From a virus (Duplodnaviria > Heunggongvirae > Uroviricota > Caudoviricetes), in IMG/VR virus record IMGVR_UViG_3300015360_001243, positions 49,999-113,998 of that record: 64,000 nucleotides of DNA; one strand, 5' to 3'. Within the stretch, counting starts at the first letter, position 1. Each line of letters opens with the position of its first letter. This document shows, one piece after another, positions 1 to 53,135 of the stretch. The notes beneath the pieces are model-generated. The model saw only the letters and a list, made by a program, of their open reading frames with translations. It was not told the DNA's origin and searched no databases. The translations under genes and the position numbers were made by a program.

Positions 1-1437
1 AAGTTCAACGGATCTTTGCGTGGTGAGATTGTCATGTTGAAGAGTGTTCATCAAAAACACTTTGCCGATAAGTCTAATCCTCGTAATGCTGCCTCTGGCA
101 CCTCTAAACGATTGGATGGTGTTGGTGTTGATAGGTTGAACATCATTTTTTACCAAGTTCTTGGTGATGTAGAGTTTGATACTGAGATCGATCAGTTCGA
201 ATGGCTAGAGAAGCACGCCCTGGGAGTTCCTAACTACTGGAAGTTCAAGACGGTTGATGATGTCAATACACATTGGCGTGATTACCAAGATAACAAGCGC
301 GATAAACTTGACTATGATATCGATGGGCTTGTCATTCGCTTGAATGAATTGGCTATGCAACTCACTTGGGGAGATAAGGATCTTCGTCCACTAGGGGCTA
401 TTGCCTTCAAGTTTGATAACGAGATGCGCGAATCAACCATCCGAGATATCATCTGGCAGGTTGGTAACAGCGGGCGTATCACTCCAGTGGCTGTTGTTGA
501 CCCCGTTCAACTGGTTGGAGCTATGGTTTCCCGAGCTAGCATTTATAATCTAGCTTACATTGAGGAGTTGGGCCTGGATATTGGGGCTAAGGTATTGGTT
601 GCACGAGCCAATGACGTCATTCCTCGCATTGAAGAGTTGGTCAAAGGTACTGGTAAGACCGCTAAGGGCCCTCAATTCTGCCCTGAGTGTGGTGGATTGA
701 CCAAGATGGATGGTGAAAACCTGATGTGTGGCAACGTCAAGCATTGCCGCGCCCAGATTATTGGCCGTATCAAGAACTGGGTTGCTGAGTTGAACCTACT
801 TGAATGGGGCGATACGTTGATTGAGAAGCTTGTTGATGCTAAGAAAATCAAGACAGTAGCAGACCTTTACACTCTAAAGGTTGATGATATTGCTAATCTT
901 GATCGTCTTGGAGAGAAGACAGCCGAGAAATGCCTTAACATCTTGAAAGCGAACATGGAAGTTCCTCTGGAAGTCTTCCTTGGAGCTTTGAGCATTCAGA
1001 TGATTGGTCAATCTACCATCAAAGCCATTATGAATGCTGGTTGCGATACGCTAGAGCGGTTCGGACAGTTGAGTGCAGCTAACTTTGAACAGGTCCCTGG
1101 CGTTGGTCCTACCAAAGCACAGTTCCTTGCGGCTGGATTAAAGAACAATCAGGCAGTTATCAATGCTCTTATTGACAACGGCGTTACTATTAAGGGTATT
1201 GTTCAGGGCGTTATGACTGGGAAGTCTATCTGTTTTACTGGCGCCATGAAGAACAAGCGCCCAGTTCTAGAGAAGATGGCCGCTGAACAGGGTGCAGAGG
1301 TCAAAGGATCTGTTGGTAAGGGGCTTACGTACCTTGTCATCGCTGATCCGAATAGCACTTCTTCTAAAGCAGTAGCTGCTCGTAAGTTCGGAACTACTTT
1401 GATTTCTGAAGATGCCTTTCTTGACTTAGTAAAGTAA
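1..1437 (+). CDS. ligA: NAD+-dependent DNA ligase (LigA), C-terminal ~480 aa; the 5' end runs off the window
   Basis: The reading frame is open from nt 1. It has the adenylation-domain motif SNPRNAASG (E. coli ANPRNAAAG), the OB-fold region, the four-Cys zinc finger CPECGG..C..C, an HhH region and a C-terminal BRCT-like GKSICFTG segment. Confidence 0.9.
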   Translation, partial: KFNGSLRGEIVMLKSVHQKHFADKSNPRNAASGTSKRLDGVGVDRLNIIFYQVLGDVEFDTEIDQFEWLEKHALGVPNYWKFKTVDDVNTHWRDYQDNKRDKLDYDIDGLVIRLNELAMQLTWGDKDLRPLGAIAFKFDNEMRESTIRDIIWQVGNSGRITPVAVVDPVQLVGAMVSRASIYNLAYIEELGLDIGAKVLVARANDVIPRIEELVKGTGKTAKGPQFCPECGGLTKMDGENLMCGNVKHCRAQIIGRIKNWVAELNLLEWGDTLIEKLVDAKKIKTVADLYTLKVDDIANLDRLGEKTAEKCLNILKANMEVPLEVFLGALSIQMIGQSTIKAIMNAGCDTLERFGQLSAANFEQVPGVGPTKAQFLAAGLKNNQAVINALIDNGVTIKGIVQGVMTGKSICFTGAMKNKRPVLEKMAAEQGAEVKGSVGKGLTYLVIADPNSTSSKAVAARKFGTTLISEDAFLDLVK

Positions 1438-12207: not shown

Positions 12208-12291
12208 GGGATCGTGGCGGAACGGCATACGCACTGGTCTAAGAAGCCAGCACCTCACGGTTTAAGGGTTCAAGTCCCTTCGATCCCACCA
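12208..12291 (+). tRNA. tRNA-Leu (anticodon read as AAG; TAA not excluded), class II, CCA encoded
   Basis: Acceptor stem GGGATCG/CGATCCC. The anticodon stem is CTGGT/GCCAG with loop CTAAGAA. The T arm is AAGGG-TTCAAGT-CCCTT. Confidence 0.7.
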
Positions 12292-13914: not shown

Positions 13915-13991
13915 GTGCCTATAGCTCAACTGGATAGAGCGTCGGTCTACGAAACCGAAGGTTGAAGATTCGAATTCTTCTAGGCATGCCA
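13915..13991 (+). tRNA. tRNA-Arg (anticodon ACG), CCA encoded
   Basis: Acceptor stem GTGCCTA/TAGGCAT. D stem GCTC/GAGC. The anticodon stem is TCGGT/ACCGA with loop CTACGAA. The T arm is GAAGA-TTCGAAT-TCTTC. Confidence 0.75.
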
Positions 13992-20391: not shown

Positions 20392-22488
20392 ATGAAGCTG
20401 AATGAGACGAAGCCTTATCTGGAAAGTTCTGGCGAACTTGAAGAGCATTCCTTTGCAATTCAAGATCAGGGAATGATCTTTGATATCTTGCGCAACAAGA
20501 TGTATTCCAATTGCATCTTGGCAATCTGCCGCGAGATCTCTTGCAACGCGAGGGATGCGCATCGTGAAGTAGGAACACCTAAGGTTCCCGTTCACATTCA
20601 CCTTCCCAATAATCTTGAACCGTATTTCAAGATTAAGGACTTCGGACCTGGTATTAGTCCAGACCGAATGATCAATATCTTTATCAAGTATACGGCTAGC
20701 ACCAAAAGAAGCGATAACGTCCAGACTGGTGGCTTCGGCCTTGGAGCTAAGACTCCCTTCTCCTATAGCGATACCTTTAGTATCATTACCATTCATGATG
20801 GTACTAAGTACAATTACAACTGTGTAATTGATGAAACTAAGATTGGTAAGATTATGCTTACCTCTCAGTCGCCTACTAAGGAAAAGAATGGAACGGAGAT
20901 CATGATTCCGGTTCTTCCGAAGGACTTCAACGATTTTACTACCTATACGGAGCAAGCTTGTCGTCATTGGGAAGTTAAGCCAGAAATCAAAGGCGGGACC
21001 GTTCGTTGGCAAGAGAGCACCTTCATCCTTGAAGGAGATAAGTGGGCCATTGCTAATTCACACGGGAGTGGTAATCGTAACGCCCGAATGATTATTGATG
21101 GTATTGAGTATCCTCTTGACCTTACCTCTCTACGTAACTACGCAGATACTAAACTGATTGATGCTGCTCAAGGGCATTTCGTCATGTACTTTGGAGTTGG
21201 TGAGCTAAGCCTTTCAGCTAGCCGTGAGGCCATCTATCTGGACGAGCGCACCAAGAGTATCATTCGTGATCGATTGGAGGCTATTCGTCAAGCTCTCCGT
21301 CAAAAAGCTGTGGAAAAGATTGAGTCCTTCGATAATCTGTGGGATGCCAATATTTATTACAATCTAGAGTTGAGCAAGGCCTTCAACAACATTCAGTTTC
21401 TTGGCCAGCTTACTTGGAAAAATCTTCCACTAACCAGCAATGGTTTTAGTGTTGGTTGTTCTGGATTCCTTTTTATAAAGGGTAAGTACTCTCGTAAGTA
21501 TGGTACAGATCCGAGCAAACTTTCTCGTGGTTCGAGCGAATACATTCGTTTCGAAAAGAATGCGGTCATCTACATCAATGACCTAAGCATTAAGGAGCCT
21601 ACTCCTAAGCATCTTAAGAAGGCATTTGAAGATGATGCTGATTTGAAGTCGGCTTATGTTATTTGCCCGACTGATAAGGTGACCTTTGATATTTTGAACA
21701 AGAGACTTCATTTGGAAAAAATGGGGGTAAAATTTCTGTCCACCATTACCAAAGCCACTGGGCGTGCTTATACTCCTCCTGCCGAGCGCTTGCTTGTCTT
21801 TAAATTCGACCGAAGTGCTTGTGCGTTTCGTCAGGTTAGTTACGCATCGGTTGATGAAGATAAGTCAACCAAGATTCTTTGTGAGCTTCAACGCGACAGT
21901 TATAATGGCAACCGTACTGCTCTTCTGGGCAAAGGTCATTTGGACTGGCATGCCATGAAGACCTTAATGAATAAGTACCCTAATCATACCTTCTATGGTG
22001 TTGATAAAGGAACCAATCCGGATAGGATTAAAAACGATTTCTCTGATTTTATCTCAGCAGAAAACTTTATTCAAGAGAAAGTTGTTGATAACAAAGCTAT
22101 CAACTATGTTGAAATTAAGTTTGCTATCACTCATCATAATAATGTTGATGAGCGGATGCTTCGGGTTAAAGACACCATGAAGAAGCTGGTTAAAGATTCA
22201 GGTAGCCTCTTTTTCCAACGACAAGCAGCTCATGAAAAGATTCGCGAAATCGCCAAAGCGGATAAAGACTTGCTTGATATTTACCAACATGCCAAGGGCG
22301 AAATTGACAAAGCGCAGTTAGAAGGCTTTGCCAAGGCAAATCCGAATCTTGATATTCTTAAGTTCAATAAACTTTATAATAAAAAGTATCCTCTGCTGCA
22401 ACATATTGACAGTTACAATTACGATGCTGTTGCGTCAGAGCTGGCCAGTTACATCAATTTAATCGATAAGGAAAACGAAAATGTCTAA
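20392..22488 (+). CDS. rIIA: rIIA-like protein with an N-terminal GHKL (histidine-kinase-like) ATPase domain
   Basis: Bergerat-fold motifs are present: N box EISCNARDAHRE, G1 IKDFGPGIS and G2 GGFGLGAKTPFSY. The size (698 aa) and the position immediately upstream of the rIIB homologue match T4 rIIA. Confidence 0.7.
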   Translation: MKLNETKPYLESSGELEEHSFAIQDQGMIFDILRNKMYSNCILAICREISCNARDAHREVGTPKVPVHIHLPNNLEPYFKIKDFGPGISPDRMINIFIKYTASTKRSDNVQTGGFGLGAKTPFSYSDTFSIITIHDGTKYNYNCVIDETKIGKIMLTSQSPTKEKNGTEIMIPVLPKDFNDFTTYTEQACRHWEVKPEIKGGTVRWQESTFILEGDKWAIANSHGSGNRNARMIIDGIEYPLDLTSLRNYADTKLIDAAQGHFVMYFGVGELSLSASREAIYLDERTKSIIRDRLEAIRQALRQKAVEKIESFDNLWDANIYYNLELSKAFNNIQFLGQLTWKNLPLTSNGFSVGCSGFLFIKGKYSRKYGTDPSKLSRGSSEYIRFEKNAVIYINDLSIKEPTPKHLKKAFEDDADLKSAYVICPTDKVTFDILNKRLHLEKMGVKFLSTITKATGRAYTPPAERLLVFKFDRSACAFRQVSYASVDEDKSTKILCELQRDSYNGNRTALLGKGHLDWHAMKTLMNKYPNHTFYGVDKGTNPDRIKNDFSDFISAENFIQEKVVDNKAINYVEIKFAITHHNNVDERMLRVKDTMKKLVKDSGSLFFQRQAAHEKIREIAKADKDLLDIYQHAKGEIDKAQLEGFAKANPNLDILKFNKLYNKKYPLLQHIDSYNYDAVASELASYINLIDKENENV

Positions 22489-23452
22489 ACTCAAGGGATA
22501 TCAGATTACGGATCAATACGTTACCGTCAACTACGATGGGCAGACCCACATCGTTCCGAGAACGGAAGCACTTGCAGATGCGCTGATTAAAGCGCTTCGT
22601 GAGGGTCAAGCCGACAAGATTCCTGATCTGGTGGTTATCTCTAAGAGAATCAAGAAGTTCTCTAATGGTAACTTCGTCATCAAGGATGGCAAGGTTCTTG
22701 TCAATGGGCAAGAGGCACCTAAGGTTTTGGGAGATAAGATCTTCCGATTCTCTAGTGAAGGTCTTCCTTTTCAGCCGCTGGTCAAGTTTGCTGAGAAACT
22801 TCAGCGCAACCCCAGTTTCCGAGCAGTCAATGAGCTATTCGGCTTTCTTGAAAAGAACAACCATCCGATTACCGAAGAAGGCAATTTCATTGCTTACAAG
22901 CGTGTTCGTGGTACCTTCAAGGATATCCACTCCAATACCTTCGACAACACGCCCGGAACTACGGTAGAAATCAATCGTAACCAGGTTGATGAAGATTCAT
23001 CGGTTACTTGTAGTCGAGGACTTCACGTAGCTAACTGGGACTATGCTCATAATCATTTCGCCAGCAGCGATAGTCAGACTGACATCATGTTGGAAGTTGA
23101 GGTTGATCCGGCTGATGTTGTGGCAATTCCTGCCGATTACAACAATGCCAAGATTCGTGTCTGCAAGTACAAGGTTCTTGGTGTGGTTGACAGTGAACAC
23201 TCTTCGGATACATCTCTTCGAGTGACCAATCCCTCTTACACGACTGCTGGTTCTTATGCTTCTGATGAAGACGAAGATGAGGACGAAGAGTATACATGTG
23301 AGGATTGCGGTGAAGAGACTGATGGCCAAGATCTTTGTGATGATTGTGACTACGAGCGCGATCAAGAGTACGAAGATGAGGAAGAGGAAGAGGAAGAGGA
23401 AGAAGACGAGGATAACGATGAATATCCTTGGAAGGATGAGTTGAACGAGTAA
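22481..23452 (+). CDS. rIIB: rIIB-like protein with an added poly-acidic C-terminal tail
   Basis: PSFRAVNELFGFLEKNNHPITEEGNFIAYKRV, HSNTFDNTPG, TCSRGLHV and IPADYNNAKIRVCKYKV align with T4 rIIB. The C-terminus is a DEDEDEDEE...EEEEEEEEEDEDNDE tail with CxxC pairs. Confidence 0.8.
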   Translation: MSKLKGYQITDQYVTVNYDGQTHIVPRTEALADALIKALREGQADKIPDLVVISKRIKKFSNGNFVIKDGKVLVNGQEAPKVLGDKIFRFSSEGLPFQPLVKFAEKLQRNPSFRAVNELFGFLEKNNHPITEEGNFIAYKRVRGTFKDIHSNTFDNTPGTTVEINRNQVDEDSSVTCSRGLHVANWDYAHNHFASSDSQTDIMLEVEVDPADVVAIPADYNNAKIRVCKYKVLGVVDSEHSSDTSLRVTNPSYTTAGSYASDEDEDEDEEYTCEDCGEETDGQDLCDDCDYERDQEYEDEEEEEEEEEDEDNDEYPWKDELNE

Positions 23453-23466
23453 TCTTTCTTAATTCT

Positions 23467-23510
23467 AGCCCGCAGTGATTGATATAAAGTCACTGCGGGC
23501 TTTTGCTTTT
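23467..23510 (+). terminator. rho-independent terminator after rIIB
   Basis: The hairpin AGCCCGCAGTGA..TCACTGCGGGCT is followed by TTTTGCTTTTT. Confidence 0.8.
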
Positions 23511-23520
23511 TGAGGTCAAT

Positions 23521-24711
23521 ATGAATATCGCAATCTTGGGCGCAATGTGGGGAGACGAGGGCAAGGGGCATATTACCCATCATCTTTCAAAAGATTATGA
23601 CTGGGTAATCCGATTCAATGGCGGAGCCAATGCTGGACATACCATCTATCGAGATGGTAAGAAGTATGTTCATAACCTTCTTCCCTCTGTTGATTTCCGT
23701 GTTCCGCAAGTCAAGTCTTATCTTGGCGCCGGAATGGTCATTGACCTTGAAAAGCTTCGTGATGAAGTCTATGATGCCGATGAAGCTTTCCCTGGCGTAG
23801 GCAAGCGCATTTATGTAGATAAAAATGCTTTTATCGTGCAGTACAAGCATAAGGAAGAAGATAAGGCCAAGAATGCTCATATTGGATCTACCAATCGTGG
23901 TATTGGTCCAGCTTATATGGATAAGGTTGGTCGTAGCGGCATTAGAGTGGGAGACTTGTTTAGTACTAGTTTCCCCACTAGTGACTACACTGATATTATG
24001 TATCAGCTTGTAGGTAAAGGCGTTAACTTCGTCAATCTGCTAAGTGTTCGAGATGAAATGAGTCGAGGCAACCTTCTTTATGAAGGTGCTCAGGGAGTGC
24101 TTCTTGATATCAATCACGGTATCTATCCTTATGTTAGTTGCAGTGATTGTACCATTGGTGGTATTTATTCTAGTGGATTTCATTTCGCTCCACCTAAAAA
24201 GATCTATGGTGTCGCCAAGGCCTACACTACTAAGGTAGGTGAAGGTCCCTTCCCAACTGAGATTCTTGGTGAAGAAGCGGAAGCACTCCGTAAACGTGGA
24301 AATGAGTATGGTGCAACCACTGGCCGACCTCGCCGAGTAGGCTGGTTGGACCTTCCGGCACTAGAGTATGCTTGTAAGGTATCAGGCATCACTGATCTCA
24401 TCCTTACCAAGTTTGATATCTTATCTGGGATGGAAAAGGTACCTATGTGCATTTTATATGATAAGGCGCCTACTAGTCCAAGAAGTTTTTTTGATGCTAA
24501 GCCACAATATGTTCAGATGGCCGGCTGGTCTTCAACTGAGAAATTTGCTCAGAAGTTTGAGGAAGATGATCCAAAGTATGCGGTTGAATACACCGATTAC
24601 TCGCACAACCTGTATGACTTCATTAGCCAAGTAGAGAAATCTACGGGCTGCCGAGTCGGTTATATTTCAAAAGGTACTGACGCTAAAGATATTATCAAGT
24701 GGCACCCCTGA
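23521..24711 (+). CDS. purA: adenylosuccinate synthetase
   Basis: N-terminal MNIAILGAMWGDEGKGH (PurA P-loop GDEGKGK), GSTNRGIGPAY, TGRPRRVGWLD. The start is set to the ATG with a GAGG Shine-Dalgarno 5 nt upstream. Confidence 0.9.
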   Translation: MNIAILGAMWGDEGKGHITHHLSKDYDWVIRFNGGANAGHTIYRDGKKYVHNLLPSVDFRVPQVKSYLGAGMVIDLEKLRDEVYDADEAFPGVGKRIYVDKNAFIVQYKHKEEDKAKNAHIGSTNRGIGPAYMDKVGRSGIRVGDLFSTSFPTSDYTDIMYQLVGKGVNFVNLLSVRDEMSRGNLLYEGAQGVLLDINHGIYPYVSCSDCTIGGIYSSGFHFAPPKKIYGVAKAYTTKVGEGPFPTEILGEEAEALRKRGNEYGATTGRPRRVGWLDLPALEYACKVSGITDLILTKFDILSGMEKVPMCILYDKAPTSPRSFFDAKPQYVQMAGWSSTEKFAQKFEEDDPKYAVEYTDYSHNLYDFISQVEKSTGCRVGYISKGTDAKDIIKWHP

Positions 24712-26383: not shown

Positions 26384-27496
26384 ATGCATTCTGTGCTTGA
26401 AACTATTATGAAACGAAGCCCACACCTTGATTGGATTGAGAAAGGCACTGTGTTATTGGTTCGACACGGCTCTCATGCCTATGGCACCAACACGGCCACT
26501 TCTGATGAGGACTTCAAGGGAGTTGCTATTCCGCCCCAGAAATACTTCTATGGTTACACTCATAGGTTTGAGCAAGCTGAATTGAAGGCTCCCGATGATG
26601 ATGCCGTCATCTACGACATTAGGAAGTTCTTTAACCTAGCTGCCGACTGTAACCCCAACATCATTGAAGTTCTTCATACCGATCCTTCAGATCACTTCAT
26701 TGTGTCACCGATTGGTAGAACGATCCTTGATCATAAGGATGCCTTTCTTTCAAAGAAGATTAAGCATACCTTTTTGGGTTACTCGGTCTCTCAGCTTAAG
26801 AGAATTAAGACGCATAAGCGTTGGATCATGGATCCGCCTTCATCGCCTCCTACTAGGGCATCTTTGGGTTTGCCCGAGCAGACTCTGATTCCTCAGGATC
26901 AACTGATGGCAGCTACTGCTGAAATTCAAAAAGAACTAGATAGATTCCAGCTTGACTTTATGGAAAAGCTGGATGAGTCAGATAAGATTGAAGCTCGTGG
27001 AGTCTTAGCTAGCATGGTTGCTGAGTTGAAGATTACTTCCGATGAGCATTTTGGTGCAACGGCCCGTAAGATTGGTTTGACTGATAACTTCATTCAAATC
27101 ATGCAAATGGAGCGTCAGTACACCGGAGCTAAGCGTGAATGGGACCAGTATCAAAACTGGAAGAAGACCCGTAACGTTAAGCGCTCTGAGCTTGAAGAGA
27201 AGTACGGTTACGATACGAAACACGCATATCATCTTGTAAGGCTAATTCGCATGTGTAGAGAGGTTCTTTTGACTGGTAAAGTTATTGTGAAGCGCCCTGA
27301 CCGTGAGGAGCTTCTAGCCATCCGCAATGGCGCCTGGACTTATGAACAACTCATTGAATTCGCCGAGAGGGAAGATATTGCGTTGAATGAGCTGTATAAC
27401 AGCACGACCATCCTTCCCAAGGTTCCTAACAAGGAAAAACTAGATCAGCTTTGTATTAAGTTGATTGAACAATTCATGTCTATTGGAGTAAAGTAA
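26384..27496 (+). CDS. Pol-beta-superfamily nucleotidyltransferase
   Basis: The N-terminal VRHGSHAYGTNTATSDEDF fits the NTase GS...DxD motif. The C-terminal half is predicted helical. Confidence 0.5.
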   Translation: MHSVLETIMKRSPHLDWIEKGTVLLVRHGSHAYGTNTATSDEDFKGVAIPPQKYFYGYTHRFEQAELKAPDDDAVIYDIRKFFNLAADCNPNIIEVLHTDPSDHFIVSPIGRTILDHKDAFLSKKIKHTFLGYSVSQLKRIKTHKRWIMDPPSSPPTRASLGLPEQTLIPQDQLMAATAEIQKELDRFQLDFMEKLDESDKIEARGVLASMVAELKITSDEHFGATARKIGLTDNFIQIMQMERQYTGAKREWDQYQNWKKTRNVKRSELEEKYGYDTKHAYHLVRLIRMCREVLLTGKVIVKRPDREELLAIRNGAWTYEQLIEFAEREDIALNELYNSTTILPKVPNKEKLDQLCIKLIEQFMSIGVK

Positions 27497-34833: not shown

Positions 34834-35002
34834 AATGATTGGTATCCAAGAGTTTAAAGGCGACCTGATCAAAATCGAACAGTTTCTAAACACAGACGCT
34901 GTAAAATTGGGTTGGAAAGTTTTATCTATTCAAAAGGTTCGTTGCTGGTATATATTCGGACCTGATGAGTACTTTGTCACATATGAGAAAGAAGATAAGT
35001 AA
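34805..35002 (+). CDS. hypothetical small protein
   Basis: ORF. Confidence 0.3.
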   Translation: MDGKEKRVSRMIGIQEFKGDLIKIEQFLNTDAVKLGWKVLSIQKVRCWYIFGPDEYFVTYEKEDK

Positions 35003-35003
35003 A

Positions 35004-35975
35004 ATGTTGAAGATTATCCTAACTGTTGGTATTCCGGCTTGTGGCAAGTCTACTTGGTCCAAAGAAGAGGTCAAGAAAGCGCCAGAGAAGGTTACGCGCA
35101 TCAATAGAGACGATCTACGTACGATGATGAGTAATTACCATTTTTCTGACGCTAATGAGAAGTTGGTTACCTCCACCAAAGAGTTCTTGCTACGCCAAGC
35201 ACTTCGCTATGGACGAGACGTCATCATTGATGAAACCAACCTCAATCGTCGAAACTTTGACGATGTGGTCAAGATCGTCAAGGATATGAACCTTGACTGT
35301 ATGGTAATGGAGAAACCTTTCTACGTTGAATTGGACGAAGCTATCGCTCGCGATAAGGAACGTCAGGGTGCTGGTTACGTGGGCGAGAGCGTTGTTCAGA
35401 AATTCTGGAAGAAGTCTGGTGGAAAGCAGCACAAACACTACAAGCCAAGGGTAGAAATTTGCCAGAGGCAGACTGAAGCCTCAGTAGCAGCGGCCGAAAT
35501 CTCTTTCAAGTCTCATCTTCCTACGGCCATTGTCTGTGACCTTGATGGAACTATTTCTCTCTTTAACTCAAAGAGAAGTGATGGATCAGTAGATGTTCGT
35601 CACTCTAAGGCGCACACCCGTAGCCCATACGATGCATCTAAGTCTGATGAAGATATGTTGAATGAGCCGGTTGCCTTAGTCATTGAAGCTATGTTCAATG
35701 CAGGTCACCATATTATTTTTTGCTCTGGTCGAGAAGATACTTATCGTGAGCAAACAGAACGCTTCCTTAAGAAGCACTTGAATATTCAGTACACTCTTCT
35801 TATGAGAAAAGGCGAAGACCTTCGCAAGGATTCGATTATCAAGTCGGAGATTTACGACGGACATATTGCTCCTAATTACAACGTCTTGTTTGTTCTAGAT
35901 GACCGTAATCAAGTGGTTGATCTATGGCGAAGCAAGGGACTATCATGTTGGCAGGTTGCCCCAGGTAATTTCTGA
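35004..35975 (+). CDS. pseT: polynucleotide kinase-phosphatase, T4 Pnk (pseT) orthologue
   Basis: MLKIILTVGIPACGKSTW..INRDDLR is near-identical in pattern to T4 Pnk MKKIILTIGCPGSGKSTW..INRDDYR. HAD motif IVCDLDGT. The C-terminal VLDDRNQVVDLWRSKGLSCWQVAPGNF aligns with T4 [26 protein letters not shown]. Confidence 0.9.
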   Translation: MLKIILTVGIPACGKSTWSKEEVKKAPEKVTRINRDDLRTMMSNYHFSDANEKLVTSTKEFLLRQALRYGRDVIIDETNLNRRNFDDVVKIVKDMNLDCMVMEKPFYVELDEAIARDKERQGAGYVGESVVQKFWKKSGGKQHKHYKPRVEICQRQTEASVAAAEISFKSHLPTAIVCDLDGTISLFNSKRSDGSVDVRHSKAHTRSPYDASKSDEDMLNEPVALVIEAMFNAGHHIIFCSGREDTYREQTERFLKKHLNIQYTLLMRKGEDLRKDSIIKSEIYDGHIAPNYNVLFVLDDRNQVVDLWRSKGLSCWQVAPGNF

Positions 35976-37514: not shown

Positions 37515-38777
37515 ATGTTACTCGTTCAAGAATATCTGTTGACACATACATTTGGTCAGTTGGCTGCTGAGCACGGAGTTTACGCTTCGTTTGCTAAAGC
37601 GGGCCACAAGTTTTCTTTGAACTATGATCAGATTGAAGCTAAAGAATCTAATCCATTGGCACAAGAATGTCGTGGCCTTGTCTTGGCGTCAAAGGACGGC
37701 CATATTCATACGCCAGTGATCAATCCTGGAGTCAAGCCTGACTTCAATCATATTTCTCCAGGTGAAACAACTATCCTTGCCTATCCAATGAATAGATTCT
37801 TCAATCATGGCCAGGGTTGTGCAGCCCAGATTGATTGGTCAGATCCTAAGCTTGCTATCCTGGAAAAGTTAGACGGTACGCTTTGCATTATCTATTTCGA
37901 TCTATTTACTGATAAGTGGTGTGTCGCAACTCGCTCTGTGTCTGAAGCGGACTTGTTGATGGATAATGGTTTGTTTACTTTCCGTACGCTCTTCGAAAAG
38001 GCTTTGACGGACACGACTGGTTACTCTTTCGATGTCTTCACCCGTTATCTTAATAAGGCTTATACTTATTGCTTTGAACTTACGACTCCGTACAACCGTA
38101 TCGTCGTAGATTATAAGAGCAATGGTATAACTTTGCTAGCAGTCCGAGGCCTGGTAACTCTTCAGGAATTGGATATGAAGCATCCGGTAGTTGATCTTCT
38201 GCCTACCAGCTTGCCAATCGTACAAGCACACACGTATACGTCTGTGGAAGATTTGGTCAATTGGGTATCTTCATTGAATCCAATGGAACATGAAGGCGTT
38301 GTAGTCCGAGACTCTAAGTTCAATCGTATCAAAGTTAAGAACGCTGCTTACGTGGCGTACAATAAACTTAATGATAAGTTAGGTTCCTCGGAACGTAATT
38401 GTATGCAGTTCATCCTTCTCGAAAAGGATGATGATGTTGCGAGCTTCCTTCCTGCGGATATCGTTAACAACATGCAGCAATTGAAAGAAGGATTACAAAA
38501 ATCAATTCATGAACATGATCTTGTTTATGATATTGCTAAAACTGTTGTTGATGTAGCAAACCCTGGAAGCAAAAAAGAATTTGCATTAGCCGTGCAAAAG
38601 GCTGTTGAACATGGTAAAACTATAAACAGAGTAATTTGGACTGCTCCTTTCTTTGCTATGTGGGATGGAAAAGCCTCTTCTATGAAGGACTTTATCCAGA
38701 AGAACCGAAAGAATGGAGAATGGGGCGACAGCTTCCTGGATAAACTCCTAGAAATGTCAAAACACCATTCAGCGTGA
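37515..38777 (+). CDS. rnlA: ATP-dependent RNA ligase 1-like (T4 RnlA / gene 63-like)
   Basis: Motif I ILEKLDGTLCIIYFD aligns with T4 Rnl1 ILTKEDGSLVSTYLD. The 420-aa size is comparable to T4 Rnl1 (374 aa). Confidence 0.65.
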   Translation: MLLVQEYLLTHTFGQLAAEHGVYASFAKAGHKFSLNYDQIEAKESNPLAQECRGLVLASKDGHIHTPVINPGVKPDFNHISPGETTILAYPMNRFFNHGQGCAAQIDWSDPKLAILEKLDGTLCIIYFDLFTDKWCVATRSVSEADLLMDNGLFTFRTLFEKALTDTTGYSFDVFTRYLNKAYTYCFELTTPYNRIVVDYKSNGITLLAVRGLVTLQELDMKHPVVDLLPTSLPIVQAHTYTSVEDLVNWVSSLNPMEHEGVVVRDSKFNRIKVKNAAYVAYNKLNDKLGSSERNCMQFILLEKDDDVASFLPADIVNNMQQLKEGLQKSIHEHDLVYDIAKTVVDVANPGSKKEFALAVQKAVEHGKTINRVIWTAPFFAMWDGKASSMKDFIQKNRKNGEWGDSFLDKLLEMSKHHSA

Positions 38778-46943: not shown

Positions 46944-47735
46944 ATGTCTAATATAAAGCTCAAAGATAGAATGATCTCTTATCGGGATAATTCTGACCAC
47001 AAATTAATGGCCCGAGTCCCGTTGGTTATCACCATCAATGGTCGCGCTTTTGCCAAAGGCAGCGAGCTTTTAGACAAACCATATGATTCGAAATTCTCGG
47101 AATGTATCCTATCTACTACTTTAAAACTTTGTAATGAGATTGAGGGTGCGCTCTTTGGATACCAGCACAATGATGAGATCGTTATCATTGCTCGTAATGA
47201 TCAAAGTCCAGACACTAGCCCCTGGTATGACAATAGGGTTCAAAAGATTTGCTCTGTTACTTCTTCGATTGCTACGATGCATTTTAATAGTTGTGCCAAT
47301 GCAATTGAATTGAATATGATTTCGGAGCCAATCTTTACTTCACAGGTATATACACTCCCTAATATTGCTGAGGCCGTCAATGCAATGATTTTCAAACAGC
47401 AACAGAATTTTCATACATCTGTGCAGTTTGCTTGTTTTTATGAACTTCTTGCCAAGAAGTTTGACAAGCATCATATTAAAGAGATGTTAAATGGGTTAAG
47501 CGTGGATGAGAAAATTGATTTGTTAGACCAAGAATGTAGAATCAACTTTAACGAATACCCAATGGCTTTTAAGCGCGGAGTAGCTTGCTACAAAGTACCT
47601 AAGGTAACAAATGGTGTAGTGAAGAACAAATGGATGCTTAATCCTGATTTACCAATTTTCACTAAGGATCAATCATTCTTATCTAATATCTTTAAGAATG
47701 GCGCGGATATTTTTAGACAAGAGAGTATTGAATGA
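46944..47735 (+). CDS. hypothetical protein
   Basis: ORF. Confidence 0.45.
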   Translation: MSNIKLKDRMISYRDNSDHKLMARVPLVITINGRAFAKGSELLDKPYDSKFSECILSTTLKLCNEIEGALFGYQHNDEIVIIARNDQSPDTSPWYDNRVQKICSVTSSIATMHFNSCANAIELNMISEPIFTSQVYTLPNIAEAVNAMIFKQQQNFHTSVQFACFYELLAKKFDKHHIKEMLNGLSVDEKIDLLDQECRINFNEYPMAFKRGVACYKVPKVTNGVVKNKWMLNPDLPIFTKDQSFLSNIFKNGADIFRQESIE

Positions 47736-48250: not shown

Positions 48251-48278
48251 TTGACACCTGGGAATATTGAGTTATATT
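48251..48278 (+). promoter_or_regulatory. sigma70-like early promoter driving the Thr tRNA array
   Basis: TTGACA (48251-48256), a 16-nt spacer and TATATT (48273-48278), with an AT-rich UP-like stretch upstream. The first tRNA starts 14 nt downstream. Confidence 0.65.
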
Positions 48279-48291
48279 CCTACGTACTTAA

Positions 48292-48365
48292 GCTAGTTTC
48301 GTATAGTGGCATTACGGCGCCTTTGTAACGCGCTCACGACAGTTCAATTCTGTCAACTAGCTCCA
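48292..48365 (+). tRNA. tRNA-Thr (anticodon TGT), CCA encoded
   Basis: Acceptor stem GCTAGTT/AACTAGC. The anticodon loop is TTTGTAA. The T arm is GACAG-TTCAATT-CTGTC. The D stem is shifted (CGTA/TACG). Confidence 0.6.
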
Positions 48366-48368
48366 TAA

Positions 48369-48442
48369 GCTGATGTAGTATAATGGTATTACCCGTCTTT
48401 GGTAAAGACGAAAATCGAGTTCGATCCTCGACCTCAGCTCCA
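48369..48442 (+). tRNA. tRNA-Thr (anticodon GGT), CCA encoded
   Basis: The acceptor stem GCTGATG/CCTCAGC has one mismatch. The anticodon stem is CGTCT/AGACG with loop TTGGTAA. The T arm is TCGAG-TTCGATC-CTCGA. Confidence 0.65.
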
Positions 48443-48515
48443 AGCCCACCAATAAACTTCGATTGTTCAAAAGAGTGGTGTTGCGCAAGCATAAAGGTCC
48501 AAGAAACAATCATAA

Positions 48516-48590
48516 GCCCGTGTAGTTCAGTGATAGAATCCCTCACTAGTAACGAGGTTGTCGGTGGTTTGATTCCACTCGCGGGCTCCA
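48516..48590 (+). tRNA. tRNA-Thr (anticodon AGT), CCA encoded
   Basis: Acceptor stem GCCCGTG/CGCGGGC. D stem GTTC/GAAT. The anticodon loop is CTAGTAA. The T arm is GGTGG-TTTGATT-CCACT. Confidence 0.65.
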
Positions 48591-48680
48591 GTCATTAACC
48601 CACTATTCAACTGCAATGCTTATGAAGGTTTGCTAAAGCGGCGGGGTATGACCATAGGAACTAAACAGCCTTCAAATCAC

Positions 48681-48754
48681 GCCCATATCATATAGTGGAA
48701 TTATGTCGCCTTCGTAACGCGATCACGTCAGTTCGATTCTGACTTTGGGCTCCA
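48681..48754 (+). tRNA. tRNA-Thr (anticodon CGT), CCA encoded
   Basis: The acceptor stem GCCCATA/TTTGGGC has one mismatch. D stem CATA/TATG. The anticodon loop is TTCGTAA. The T arm is GTCAG-TTCGATT-CTGAC. Confidence 0.6.
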
Positions 48755-48755
48755 C

Positions 48756-48998
48756 ATGATTGAATGTATTGTTTGTGCTACATTAGATTGTACAATTATT
48801 CATACCGCAGATGAGATTTCAAAATCTGTTCCCAAAAAATGTTATGTTTGTAGGGCGCTGGCCATTAATGCATTCTGTGAAAAACTTCACACTATTGAAG
48901 AAATTAAAAATCCTCCAATATCTACCACAGAAGAAATGAGTATAGCCTTGCGAGTTTGTATTGCCTATGCGAAATTATCAGAGAATGAAAATGGCTAA
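48756..48998 (+). CDS. hypothetical small Cys-containing protein
   Basis: ORF starting 2 nt after the Thr tRNA. Confidence 0.35.
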   Translation: MIECIVCATLDCTIIHTADEISKSVPKKCYVCRALAINAFCEKLHTIEEIKNPPISTTEEMSIALRVCIAYAKLSENENG

Positions 48999-49179
48999 GG
49001 CAGATCAAGAAGCTTTCAATATTATTGTCGCATTAGTTAATAAGGGGCAAGTAATTCAGATTGAACAAAAATTCGGCGGAGTTGAGGTCACAGTGTGGCC
49101 CAATCAACACGATCAATTAAACCATTCACATTATCAAGGAGCAACGTTACTAGAAGCGATTTCAAAGTTAGAAGTTTAA
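48961..49179 (+). CDS. hypothetical small protein
   Basis: ORF ending 2 nt before the tmRNA. Confidence 0.35.
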   Translation: MPMRNYQRMKMAKADQEAFNIIVALVNKGQVIQIEQKFGGVEVTVWPNQHDQLNHSHYQGATLLEAISKLEV

Positions 49180-49180
49180 T

Positions 49181-49532
49181 GGGGATGTCCTGGTTTCGAC
49201 AGGGTGGACCTTTATTGAAATGATACAAGCAAGAGATGATTGCAGCTCTTTAAGCAGTCAACGTATAAATGCAAACGATAACGCATTTGCTCCATTAGCA
49301 CTAGCTGCTTGATGGATGTCCTTTGATAAGATAGTTTTAGTAATCAAAAGGATATAAACCACCAAAACTAGTTCCGCATTGTTCGACGAGTAGCGGATAC
49401 GAAATAAACAGGGATAGCAGAGAGGGCGAATTACTCTCAGAGTTGTCAGTGACTCTAATACTGACTAAGCTTGTGAATGAGTTTTTCTAAACAAAATCTT
49501 GGACAGGGGTTCGACTCCCCTCATCTCCACCA
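49181..49532 (+). ncRNA. ssrA: tmRNA (ssrA), tag peptide (A)ANDNAFAPLALAA
   Basis: The 5' end GGGGATGTCCTGGTTTCGACAGGG resembles E. coli GGGGCUGAUUCUGGAUUCGACGGG. The internal ORF GCA AAC GAT AAC GCA TTT GCT CCA TTA GCA CTA GCT GCT TGA encodes the tag. The 3' T arm is AGGGG-TTCGACT-CCCCT, and the acceptor CATCTCC-A-CCA pairs with the 5' GGGGATG. Confidence 0.85.
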
Positions 49533-49533
49533 C

Positions 49534-49893
49534 ATGAATAAAGTATATGCTGTTGGTTGCCTTCAACTTGATGAAGCGCCTAATGCCAAGCGCATCATTA
49601 AAGAAGATCGGCTTTGGCATTTGTATGCCAAATTTGAAGACGCTGAGAAATGCGTTCTAAACAATAGTGGAGATCTTTTTGAATGCAATTTCAATTACGC
49701 CCTCATTGAGGAAACGTATGTAATTGACCCTAGCGATCCGCCTAAAGAAGGCGAGCTATTAGCCATACCACGTGAGTGGTGGTACTTTGCCGACCATACT
49801 AAAGGTAATGAAGAAAATCTTTTTGAGCCCGAAATTAGTGCTTGCGAAAAGCCTAAATGCTTAGAGAATTGCGTCTATTTTTGGATTGGTTGA
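49534..49893 (+). CDS. hypothetical protein
   Basis: The ATG lies 2 nt after the tmRNA CCA. The longer ORF from 49477 would overlap the tmRNA. Confidence 0.45.
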   Translation: MNKVYAVGCLQLDEAPNAKRIIKEDRLWHLYAKFEDAEKCVLNNSGDLFECNFNYALIEETYVIDPSDPPKEGELLAIPREWWYFADHTKGNEENLFEPEISACEKPKCLENCVYFWIG

Positions 49894-50574
49894 TTATTTC
49901 TTAAACCACTTGGTAATGTAATCAAGTGGGCTTGTAAAAATTGGTGAAGAAGGTAATGGCTTCTTATCTGATGGAACCGGAATGTTAACATTAGGGTCTG
50001 TTGGAAGGGTTGGCTCGGTGATAACTAATCCGGCCACTGCCGTTTCGTAAGTAGTATCCTTCATAAACTTTTTGAAATAAACATTCATAAGCTTAATATA
50101 ATCAGACTCAGGGGCAGTATAATAACCTGCTACTTTAAGTAAATGAGCAAAGTCTGCTGGTTTACCAGCTTCTACGGCGCTCCAAGATTTTTTGTAACGA
50201 TGATTTCTAAGGAAATCTAAATGATGAGCAACACCGTCCCCAAGAGTTGGGAAGGAGCGGAACCAAGTTGCTGGGTGTGGCGGTTGAAAAGTAATTCTCT
50301 GGCCATTGACAATTACCCAAACATTGGCTAACATCATGTATTCCTTGCCGTCATCAATGTTGCCTCCATTGGCCACGAACTTTACGTTGCCAATATTATT
50401 GTTCCACATTGAAACTGTCCCACCAGTTTCTAATGCATTTTGAGCATAAAGAACTCCGATTGATTCCTTCTTAGGAATTTCATCAAATTTCTTATACCAT
50501 CCTTGGACTAAACCAAAGATCAATTCATTAAGGGTATACTTAGTTCTAACTGTTGGTACTAACTTTGCTGCCAT
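49894..50574 (-). CDS. peptidoglycan hydrolase, GH73 glucosaminidase-like domain
   Basis: LYAQNALETGGTVSMWNNNIGNVKF matches FlgJ/GH73 AQAALESGWG...NNLFGIK. Confidence 0.6.
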   Translation of the reverse strand: MAAKLVPTVRTKYTLNELIFGLVQGWYKKFDEIPKKESIGVLYAQNALETGGTVSMWNNNIGNVKFVANGGNIDDGKEYMMLANVWVIVNGQRITFQPPHPATWFRSFPTLGDGVAHHLDFLRNHRYKKSWSAVEAGKPADFAHLLKVAGYYTAPESDYIKLMNVYFKKFMKDTTYETAVAGLVITEPTLPTDPNVNIPVPSDKKPLPSSPIFTSPLDYITKWFKK

Positions 50575-50617: not shown

Positions 50618-51115
50618 ATGAAATGGCCCCTTGTAAATAAAGAAATCTCCCTGGTCCCTGAAGGATCAGTTGGAGATTTTGCTTTTCGCCGCTCTTTTTA
50701 CTACCATCCGGGGATTGACATTTATTGTCCAGAATATACAATTGTTCAGTCTATCGAAGCCGGCGCTGTAGTTCATTTTGAGAATTTCACTGGGCCAAAT
50801 GCCAATCCACCTAGTCCCTGGTGGAATGAAACCTTCTCCGTCATGGTTGAGGGCAAAAGCGGCGTCATTGGCTATTGCGAGTTAATGTATGATGCCAGGC
50901 TAACTGTAGGAACTCAGATTCGAGCTGGAGAGATTATTGGAGCTATTGTTCCTGTTCTGAAAAAGGATAAGGGTAATGGAACCACGATGCTCCACCTGGA
51001 ACACTACATTACTGGAACGAGAGAGCATGTGACCTGGGTGCTAGATACGCCTCAGCCGGCTCAATTATTGAACCCTAGATTTTTACTAGAGAAAATTATC
51101 AATGAGAACGTTTAA
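50618..51115 (+). CDS. M23-family metallopeptidase (lysostaphin-like peptidoglycan endopeptidase)
   Basis: YHPGIDIY (HxGxD) and MLHLEHY (HxH). Confidence 0.6.
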   Translation: MKWPLVNKEISLVPEGSVGDFAFRRSFYYHPGIDIYCPEYTIVQSIEAGAVVHFENFTGPNANPPSPWWNETFSVMVEGKSGVIGYCELMYDARLTVGTQIRAGEIIGAIVPVLKKDKGNGTTMLHLEHYITGTREHVTWVLDTPQPAQLLNPRFLLEKIINENV

Positions 51116-52823: not shown

Positions 52824-53135
52824 GTGATTACGCGCGAAGATATTAGTGCGGGCTACCAAGGAGTGCAGAGCATTCATGCTGCAATTCAATTTGCCATGGA
52901 ACACCCTACCACTAATAAGGAATGGTTTGAGAAGTCTAACTACTTAGGCTTCTTATCTGTTCCTGACGAAGAGCAATTGATTGATTTGGTCGAGAAAGCC
53001 ACCTCTCTAGGTATTGAATGTTCAATCTTTAGAGAGCCTGATATTGATAATCAAATTACTGCAATTGCTATCGCGCCCGGTCTGAAAAGTAAGAAACTTT
53101 GTAGCAACTTAAAGCTGGCACTCAAAGAGCCATAA
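52824..53135 (+). CDS. peptidyl-tRNA hydrolase, PTH2 family
   Basis: VITREDISAGYQGVQSIHAAIQFA aligns with PTH2 [25 protein letters not shown]. C-terminal ITAIAIAPG (cf. VTVLGIGPG). Confidence 0.6.
   Translation: MITREDISAGYQGVQSIHAAIQFAMEHPTTNKEWFEKSNYLGFLSVPDEEQLIDLVEKATSLGIECSIFREPDIDNQITAIAIAPGLKSKKLCSNLKLALKEP

Follow-up and report, generated by a model that had tools for sequence, protein, structure and literature searches.

A complete one-piece transfer-messenger RNA (tmRNA, ssrA) gene of 352 nucleotides (nt) lies at 49181-49532 on the plus strand of a 64-kb stretch of the IMG/VR virus record IMGVR_UViG_3300015360_001243 (positions 49,999 to 113,998 of that record; the whole stretch of 64,000 nt is referred to as the window). 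Read from its sequence, the element is a genuine phage tmRNA. It is probably functional, supplying ordinary trans-translation to a large phage with T4-like equipment (rIIA/rIIB, Pnkp, Rnl1) from within a plus-strand island of tRNA and translation-maintenance genes. ARAGORN reports the gene with its coding part at nt 91-132 and the tag ANDNAFAPLALAA*, and Rfam returns a match to the tmRNA family RF00023 on the same coordinates (123.6 bits vs a gathering score of 47, E 8e-48, model positions 1-374 of 374, not truncated). Chance is excluded by this E value together with the full-length match. A preliminary description of the region had placed a complete ssrA-like RNA at identical coordinates and proposed a scan with the RF00023 covariance model, which accepts the gene.

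Architecture of the tmRNA and selection on its fold

The two ends of the RNA define a tRNA-Ala-like domain without an anticodon arm. The acceptor stem P1 (GGGGAUG/CAUCUCC) contains the G3:U70 pair, which is invariant in all 11 aligned relatives, while acceptor pairs 4-7 covary. A reduced D region, CUGGUUUCGAC (type UGGnUUCGAC), is located in the 5' part of the molecule, and the T loop is canonical. The tRNA-Ala-like acceptor/T arm and the encoded CCA of the preliminary description are all present, and its check on alanine identity is answered by G3:U70 and the discriminator A, both read from the sequence.

The internal helices were placed by hand, and positions within the tmRNA plus 49180 give window coordinates (Table 1). 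PK1, the first pseudoknot (PK), ends 10 nt upstream of the resume codon, from which it is separated by an A/U-rich leader. The sequence context of the tag frame is UAUAAAU/GCA ... GCU GCU UGA, with no start codon. Two leader bases, U at -5 and A at -4, we take to correspond to U85 and A86 of E. coli. SmpB is contacted by the five bases upstream of the tag frame, which set the frame and place the resume codon (PMC8012679). The tag frame ends in LALAA followed by UGA at 49310-49312, as had been described, and its placement relative to PK1, the resume codon and helix 5 is that of genuine tmRNAs, judged from the hand-placed helices and their covariation.

We scored the full structure, including the pseudoknots, on an alignment of 11 sequences with 48-75% identity to the window gene. 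As controls, the 3' partners were slid by 1-3 columns and the columns were shuffled 500 times. In the alignment, the structure's pairs are formed in 83.3% of cells, compared with 36-47% in the slid controls, and both sides have changed at 58 of 90 pairs, compared with 12-25 in the slid controls. None of the 500 shuffles reached the observed values of pairing and covariation.

The individual helices contribute as follows. All cells of P1 are paired. P2a (95.5%) and P2d (93.7%) are well paired and carry compensatory changes on both sides, while the middle of P2 is less certain (68%). Within PK1, both-side changes occur at 8 of 11 pairs; P3 is 86% paired, with all five pairs changed on both sides, and P4 is 98.5% paired. 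P5 is paired in only 66% of cells across the family because tag lengths differ among the relatives, and its inner GC pairs are invariant. P6 and P7 of PK2 are 84.7% and 84.4% paired, with both-side changes at 8 of 9 and 4 of 7 pairs, respectively. P8 covaries in a poorly aligned region (60%). The hairpin at nt 240-258 (85.5%) and the two PK4 stems (86.2% and 93.9%) have 4-5 both-side-changed pairs each, and the T stem is 96% paired with both-side changes at 4 of 5 pairs. A candidate second stem for PK3 in the window copy, UUCG/CGAA (nt 202-205 with 220-223), was rejected, being 29.5% paired and not conserved.

The tag is conserved at the level of the peptide. Between the window and its relative in contig L001, 4 of the 39 tag nucleotides differ, all synonymously. 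Synonymous-only variation is also seen in tag codons 1-7 of the 11 sequences collected with a tag pattern, a circular result since the search pattern imposed the peptide; resampling was therefore made with a motif from the 3' strand of P2 that is independent of the tag. L001 was also recovered independently of its tag. Purifying selection acts on both the fold and the tag peptide, and this favours a working tmRNA rather than a remnant or decoy. A two-piece (permuted) tmRNA was considered and rejected, as the window contains no match to RF04321 and the gene is co-linear with RF00023. As far as the letters alone allow, the gene has every testable defining feature of RF00023, and its departures are lineage-level details only.

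A tmRNA family in metagenomic phage contigs

No match was found among 50,697 deposited phage records, either by blastn with the tmRNA or by megablast with 20 kb around it. The family is represented only in metagenomic contigs. A pattern of the full tag identified a single IMG/VR contig, L001 (144.8 kb), with the same four tRNA-Thr genes followed by a tmRNA of 75% nucleotide identity and identical tag. Further relatives were collected with a pattern of the ANDNAFA prefix, followed by ARAGORN and Rfam, and with the P2 motif CTAAGYYTGTGAAYGARTTT and nhmmer. The P2 3'-strand motif on its own retrieved 51 phage contig stretches in IMG/VR. In all, about 19 distinct full-length relatives, with 64-75% identity, are present in about 25 IMG/VR contigs of 6-481 kb, 11 of them longer than 200 kb.

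The tags of the family are ANDNAFAPLALAA, ANDNAFAPMALAA, ANDNAFAPVAQAA, ANDNAFAEVAIAA, ANDNAFAMAA and ANDNAFAEAA. The tag-independent sample adds ANDNSIAQAA, ANDNGFAMAA, ADESAFAMAA, ADETVFAMAA, ANDNAFESFALAA, ANDNDNISFAQAA, ANDNAAPVALAA and ANDNAFVPMAQAA, all of which keep the form AND/ADE...(A/Q/L/M)AA. Tag frames of the family stop at UAA or UGA, never at UAG. At least one tRNA-Thr gene is located within about 1.3 kb upstream of the tmRNA in nearly all sufficiently long loci, and the full array of four in about half of the relative loci. These upstream tRNA-Thr genes and the P2 3' motif CUAAGYYUGUGAAYGARUUU set the family apart. The motif extends to a broader group of phage tmRNAs in which only the 3' part is common and the tags are quite different.

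Several details vary within the family. Non-canonical T loops (UGCAAUG, GGCAGUA, AGUCGGA instead of UUCGAnU) are observed in members L044, L020, L025 and L018, and the tmRNAs of L198 and L207 have no encoded CCA (3' end …CUCCAAAA). Matches to RF04321 just above threshold at L001 2074-2309, L018 1880-2089 and L025 1643-1863 were rejected as artefacts of gene adjacency. Each covers tRNA-Thr(CGU) (in L018, a stretch just upstream of it) together with the 5' portion of the one-piece gene, and automated annotation could be misled by them. A GOLLD RNA (RF02032, about 300 bits) adjoins a 23-tRNA array and a different phage tmRNA with the tag AVELSTMTFEDAMAFVGADLAVAA in each of two IMG/VR contigs, L055 (4451-4861) and L056 (8254-8663), which measure about 200-245 kb.

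The preliminary description had called phage tmRNAs uncommon. This holds for their overall frequency, as a tmRNA is present in 402 of 18,146 phage genomes, 133 of them unique (PMC9004378), and the overall share is put at 2.3%; they are nonetheless well documented. Huge phages carry tmRNA and SmpB (PMC7162821), and tmRNAs are found in Bxz1-type mycobacteriophages and Bacillus phage G (PMC4131195; PMC12484599). The window tmRNA is a further example of an element already reported for huge phages and is not novel in kind. Like the tmRNAs of huge phages, phage G and the Bxz1 type, it is full length, resides in a large phage genome with many tRNAs and translation genes, and has a proposed role in the upkeep of ribosome rescue during infection. 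It differs in having no nucleotide similarity detectable by blastn to any of the 50,697 deposited phage records and in its tag (that of phage G is AKLNITNNELQVA), and the SmpB encoded by some huge phages is not seen in this 64-kb window.

A second group of phage tmRNAs is known from marine myophages, among them the OM43 phage Melnitz and the pelagimyophages (PMC9004378). As in the window, these are phage-borne ssrA genes in lytic, myophage-like genomes, located downstream of a promoter. In contrast to the one-piece window gene, they are circularly permuted and of alphaproteobacterial type, and the Melnitz tmRNA is linked to a glutamine riboswitch, whereas no riboswitch was found in the window by an Rfam scan at gathering thresholds.

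Compared with bacterial tmRNAs, the window gene shares with the one-piece type, such as E. coli SsrA (ANDENYALAA), the tRNA-Ala-like domain with G3:U70, discriminator A and CCA, the missing anticodon arm and the long P2. It also shares with them PK1, a GCA resume codon about 10 nt further on, a short AND...ALAA tag, a stop codon in helix 5 and three further pseudoknots. Unlike them, it is phage-encoded, with a guanine-cytosine (GC) content of 0.42, a 13-codon tag with an inserted ...AFAPL..., a weak second stem in PK3, an extra hairpin before a very compact PK4, and neighbouring ORFs that abut both ends of a gene devoid of its own promoter and terminator.

The tag prefix is also found in Myxococcota/Polyangia. 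In a scan of genomes for ANDNAFA codons, the real tmRNAs among the matches listed (at least 120) were nine, all with the tag ANDNAFALAA and all from Myxococcota/Polyangia or from unclassified "proteobacterium" genomes. These tmRNAs share with the window gene the ANDNAFA prefix, a one-piece organization and a similar length (355-363 nt), but have 43-49% identity to it, a GC content of 0.58-0.66 and a shorter tag without the P-L-A insertion. The shared prefix is a hint, read from the tags, on the host or on tag convergence; it is neither evidence of recent capture nor an assignment of the host.

A further hairpin, absent from the standard helix scheme of tmRNA, is predicted around the resume codon. 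It would pair 49266-49272 (nt 86-92, UAAAUGC, into which the resume codon's G and C fall) with 49283-49289 (nt 103-109, GCAUUUG, in tag codons 5-7) over 7 bp. All family members are predicted to form the hairpin, as are the Myxococcota/Polyangia tmRNAs, where the resume codon likewise would pair with codons 5-7 (16-20 sequences). A few changes are compensatory. At -1:+15 the phages have U:A, with A:U in L069 and C:G in L176, and the pair -4:+18 is A:U or G:C; in L184, the 3' strand still pairs although its reading frame has shifted. Paired cells amount to 83-86%, compared with 10-43% in slid controls, but both-side changes are limited to 2-3 pairs, and 3 (A3) and 19 (A4) of 500 shuffles attained the covariation score. 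With statistical support this modest, the predicted hairpin is a lead, not a finding.

Genomic setting in the window

The window is phage DNA. Its GC content is about 0.40 throughout, and 78 of the 84 ORFs (open reading frames) of at least 100 amino acids (aa) are on the plus strand, with a coverage of 86% of the window. Gene identities, which are family matches, are listed in Table 1 together with the features of the tmRNA. No capsid, tail or other virion genes are seen within the 64 kb. The closest rIIA among deposited phages has 41% identity and belongs to a 462-kb uncultured phage; the 41 kb around this match (LR756500.1) contain 8 tRNAs and no tmRNA.

Table 1 Coordinates of features in the window (nt, position within the tmRNA)
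Feature	Window coordinates	Strand	Details
NAD-dependent DNA ligase	16-1437		
tRNA genes grouped by amino acid	11179-14123, 48292-48754		Arg-CCU at 56592-56669
rIIA	20392-22488		
rIIB	22481-23452		
Adenylosuccinate-synthetase-like gene	23503-24711		PF00709, 366 bits
RlaP-like RNA-repair nucleotidyltransferase	26384-27496		
Polynucleotide kinase Pnkp	34965-35975		T4-type
RNA ligase 1 (Rnl1)	37515-38777		T4-type
Thg1-like tRNA-His guanylyltransferase	46944-47735		
Sigma-70-like promoter	48251-48278	+	TTGACA-16-TATATT; consensus scan only, 11/12 matches
tRNA-Thr array	48292-48754	+	UGU, GGU, AGU, CGU; ARAGORN
Two small unannotated ORFs	48756-48998, 48991-49179		Between Thr array and tmRNA
Acceptor stem P1, 5' strand	49181-49187	+	nt 1-7, GGGGAUG; pairs with CAUCUCC, 49522-49528 (nt 342-348)
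Helix P2, 5' strand	49201-49230	+	P2a nt 21-25 with 316-320; P2d nt 45-50 with 289-294
PK1	49231-49260	+	P3 AAGAG/CUCUU, nt 51-55 with 66-70; P4 UGAUUGC/GCAGUCA, nt 57-63 with 74-80
Single-stranded leader	49261-49270	+	nt 81-90, ACGUAUAAAU; U at -5, A at -4
Tag frame	49271-49312	+	nt 91-132; GCA resume codon, 13 codons ANDNAFAPLALAA, stop UGA 49310-49312 (nt 130-132)
Helix P5	49292-49315	+	nt 112-135; encloses tag-frame end and stop codon
PK2	49319-49370	+	P6 nt 139-147 with 163-172; P7 nt 152-158 with 184-190
PK3 region	49373-49403	+	P8 UCCGC/GCGGA, nt 193-197 with 213-217; second stem uncertain
Hairpin, then compact PK4	49420-49465	+	Hairpin nt 240-258; PK4 nt 259-264 with 271-276 and 265-270 with 280-285
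Helix P2, 3' strand	49469-49500	+	Holds family-conserved motif CUAAGCUUGUGAAUGAGUUU
T arm and acceptor 3' strand	49505-49532	+	T arm nt 325-341, AGGGG-UUCGACU-CCCCU; sequence, Rfam
Discriminator A	49529	+	Sequence reading
Encoded CCA	49530-49532	+	Sequence reading
ORF, 119 aa	49534-49893	+	Conserved; start kept in L001
Glucosaminidase/endolysin-type gene	49894-50574	-	Convergent; weak PF01832 match, 33.9 bits
M23 peptidase	50618-51115		
Peptidyl-tRNA hydrolase PTH2	52824-53135		Archaeal/eukaryotic-type
Two amber-suppressor tRNAs, anticodon CUA	54330-54401, 54552-54626	+	One ARAGORN 'tRNA-Pyl', the other Rfam only
IF3	56047-56583		Full-length

The tmRNA had been described as sitting between the array of tRNA-Thr genes and a convergent lysis-type gene. 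This is roughly right, but simplified, as ORFs intervene on both sides. The 119-aa ORF on the downstream side has no Pfam or PHROG match. The stop codon of the upstream ORF is located 1 nt before G1 of the tmRNA, and the ATG of the downstream ORF 2 nt after its CCA. With ORFs abutting both ends, the tmRNA must be cut from a longer transcript, as tRNAs are. The strong promoter-like site at 48251-48278 is probably the start of a transcript carrying the tRNA-Thr genes and the tmRNA; the consensus scan detected no terminator on the way from it to the tmRNA, nor just after the tmRNA. Maturation of the tmRNA 3' end would leave a nearly leaderless mRNA for the ORF at 49534-49893, whose ATG and first codons are conserved in L001.

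ARAGORN detects 17 tRNAs in the window and Rfam one more. They fall into groups by amino acid, and the isoacceptor sets are nearly complete (Leu x4, Glu x2, Arg x4, Thr x4). Among them are A34 species, namely Thr(AGU) at 48516, Leu(AAG) at 12208 and Arg(ACG) at 13915; in bacteria, A34 is usually confined to Arg(ACG). The best-matching PHROG for the adenylosuccinate-synthetase homologue is annotated as a PurZ-type enzyme, as in 2-aminoadenine (Z-base) phages. The phage sequence of the window recurs in the JGI samples 3300020180 and 3300022222 and in the runs SRR6448219 and SRR6448211, where identical IF3 genes have the same neighbours. The two runs derive from benthic microbial mats of ice-covered Lake Vanda, Antarctica, and metagenome-assembled genomes from these mats include one of Polyangiia (Myxococcota).

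Proposed role and alternative explanations

In the proposed role, the tmRNA would be co-transcribed with the upstream tRNA-Thr array, probably from the site at 48251-48278, and excised by tRNA-type processing, with RNase P cutting at G1 and the 3' end trimmed to the encoded CCA. Through G3:U70 and the discriminator A, the alanyl-tRNA synthetase (AlaRS) of the host would charge it with alanine. Host SmpB would bind the RNA and EF-Tu would deliver it to ribosomes stalled at mRNA 3' ends. Translation would resume on the GCA at 49271 and add (A)ANDNAFAPLALAA, termination at the UGA would free the ribosome, and the ...LALAA end would direct the tagged product to host ClpXP-type proteases. Charging, SmpB binding, EF-Tu delivery and degradation of the tagged product are established for the pathway (PMC8012679). 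For the phage, the benefit would be that free ribosomes stay available throughout a long infection, in which host RNA synthesis is probably off and broken or read-through mRNAs would accumulate.

Several observations weigh against this role. No smpB was found in the 64-kb window by tblastn with E. coli SmpB at E values up to 10. The query was validated (PF01668, 194 bits), and in phage records of the Firmicutes type it picks up SmpB proteins of 42-47% identity; that the phage relies on host SmpB is an assumption. The gene has neither a promoter nor a terminator of its own, and ORFs abut both its ends. The GGCUA/UAGCC stem that RNAalifold finds as the second stem of PK3 in the relatives is degenerate in the window copy; PK2-PK4 are known to differ from lineage to lineage. 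Finally, the nested minimum-free-energy fold has a z-score of only -1.75 against shuffles and recovers most local hairpins but not P2. A weak z-score is expected because the RNA is pseudoknotted, and it carries little weight.

The preliminary description had offered two purposes for the tmRNA. Rescue of ribosomes during RNA-targeting host defence finds only circumstantial support in the tRNA-repair pair Pnkp and Rnl1 and in the tRNA-maintenance genes of the same window. Redirected tagging and proteolysis is less in keeping with the tag as read, whose canonical ...LALAA end argues against it.

The ordinary role could be refined, and compatibly so, by a link to the suppressor tRNAs. Here, the two tRNA(CUA) genes that lie some 5 kb beyond the tmRNA (54330-54401 and 54552-54626) would cause read-through of UAG on host mRNAs and some phage mRNAs, up to the 3' ends, and the tmRNA would mainly clear the resulting non-stop complexes and destroy the extended proteins. 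Among the 9 relatives whose sequence extends at least 5 kb beyond the tmRNA, 6 also have a tRNA(CUA) gene 2-6 kb downstream of it. As a stop codon, UAG is used by only 3 of the 84 window ORFs of at least 100 aa (TAA 48, TGA 33, TAG 3) and by no tag frame of the family. SsrA is known to handle non-stop complexes that arise from nonsense suppression (Ueda et al. 2002, cited in PMC8012679), and tmRNA acts at unassigned UAG codons (PMC6207430). Conversely, three relatives with 5-8 kb of downstream sequence (L201, L207 and L221) show no tRNA(CUA), no window gene needs UAG read-through, many tmRNA-bearing phages have no reported suppressor, and co-location is expected anyway inside a general tRNA island. 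On balance, we consider it unlikely that this is the main task of the tmRNA. UAG recoding within the window was itself rejected, as no long ORF needs read-through; the synteny of suppressors in several relatives suggests that UAG is recoded in other parts of the genome, such as the late genes.

A wider proposal, which we hold to be slightly less likely again, is that the tmRNA is a fixed part of a translation-takeover module in a clade of suppressor-carrying huge phages. It would clear ribosomes driven to mRNA 3' ends by the suppressors or by RNA-cleaving host defences, with entry into the tag gated by the predicted resume-codon hairpin (nt 86-92 with 103-109).

Less probable still is that the phage RNA acts as a competitor or decoy, which would titrate host SmpB, AlaRS or EF-Tu, or swap the host tag and so change which proteins are degraded. 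A molecule reduced to the tRNA-like domain inhibits tmRNA, probably via titration of SmpB, and a fragment of this kind is present in mycobacteriophage DS6A (PMC4131195). No smpB was detected beside the window gene, and the C-terminal tag residues vary in the family (LALAA, MALAA, VAQAA, FAMAA, FAEAA). Like the DS6A fragment, the window gene is phage-borne and tmRNA-derived. However, while the candidate SmpB titrator of DS6A comprises little beyond the tRNA-like domain, the window gene is full length, with the entire mRNA-like domain and all pseudoknots, and PK1, the resume-codon context, the tag frame, its stop codon, PK2 and PK4, which a decoy does not need, are under purifying selection. Moreover, the window tag ends in the canonical ...ALAA degradation signal, so that the outcome would be normal tagging.

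A passenger or remnant, that is, a piece of host ssrA from an integration site or bacterial or megaplasmid DNA with the tmRNA of the cell itself, would fit with ssrA being a common attachment site into which many temperate phages integrate, with the frequent carry-over of smpB/ssrA at prophage edges in phage records, with the similar translation-gene sets of some large plasmids (PMC7162821) and with the lack of capsid and tail genes in the window, but it is excluded for practical purposes by a gene that is complete and not a 3' fragment, by a GC content that matches the phage and not the bacterial tmRNAs with the same tag prefix, which are only 43-49% identical, by the same placement relative to tRNA-Thr genes across viral contigs of up to 481 kb, and by a gene content that includes rIIA/rIIB, Pnkp, Rnl1 and endolysin-type genes and, beyond auxiliary ones such as IF3 and PurA, no bacterial housekeeping genes seen in the window.

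As a probable supplier of ordinary trans-translation, the window tmRNA adds one well-formed case to the translation genes of large phages and confirms existing knowledge. The family may serve as a marker and test case, since its alignment shows strong covariation for all four pseudoknots, and the tag prefix in common with Myxococcota is a possible clue to the host. Only a proven function of the suppressor link or of the resume-codon hairpin would change current understanding, and the family offers a natural setting in which to ask whether phage tmRNAs tie to suppressor tRNAs and RNA-repair genes.

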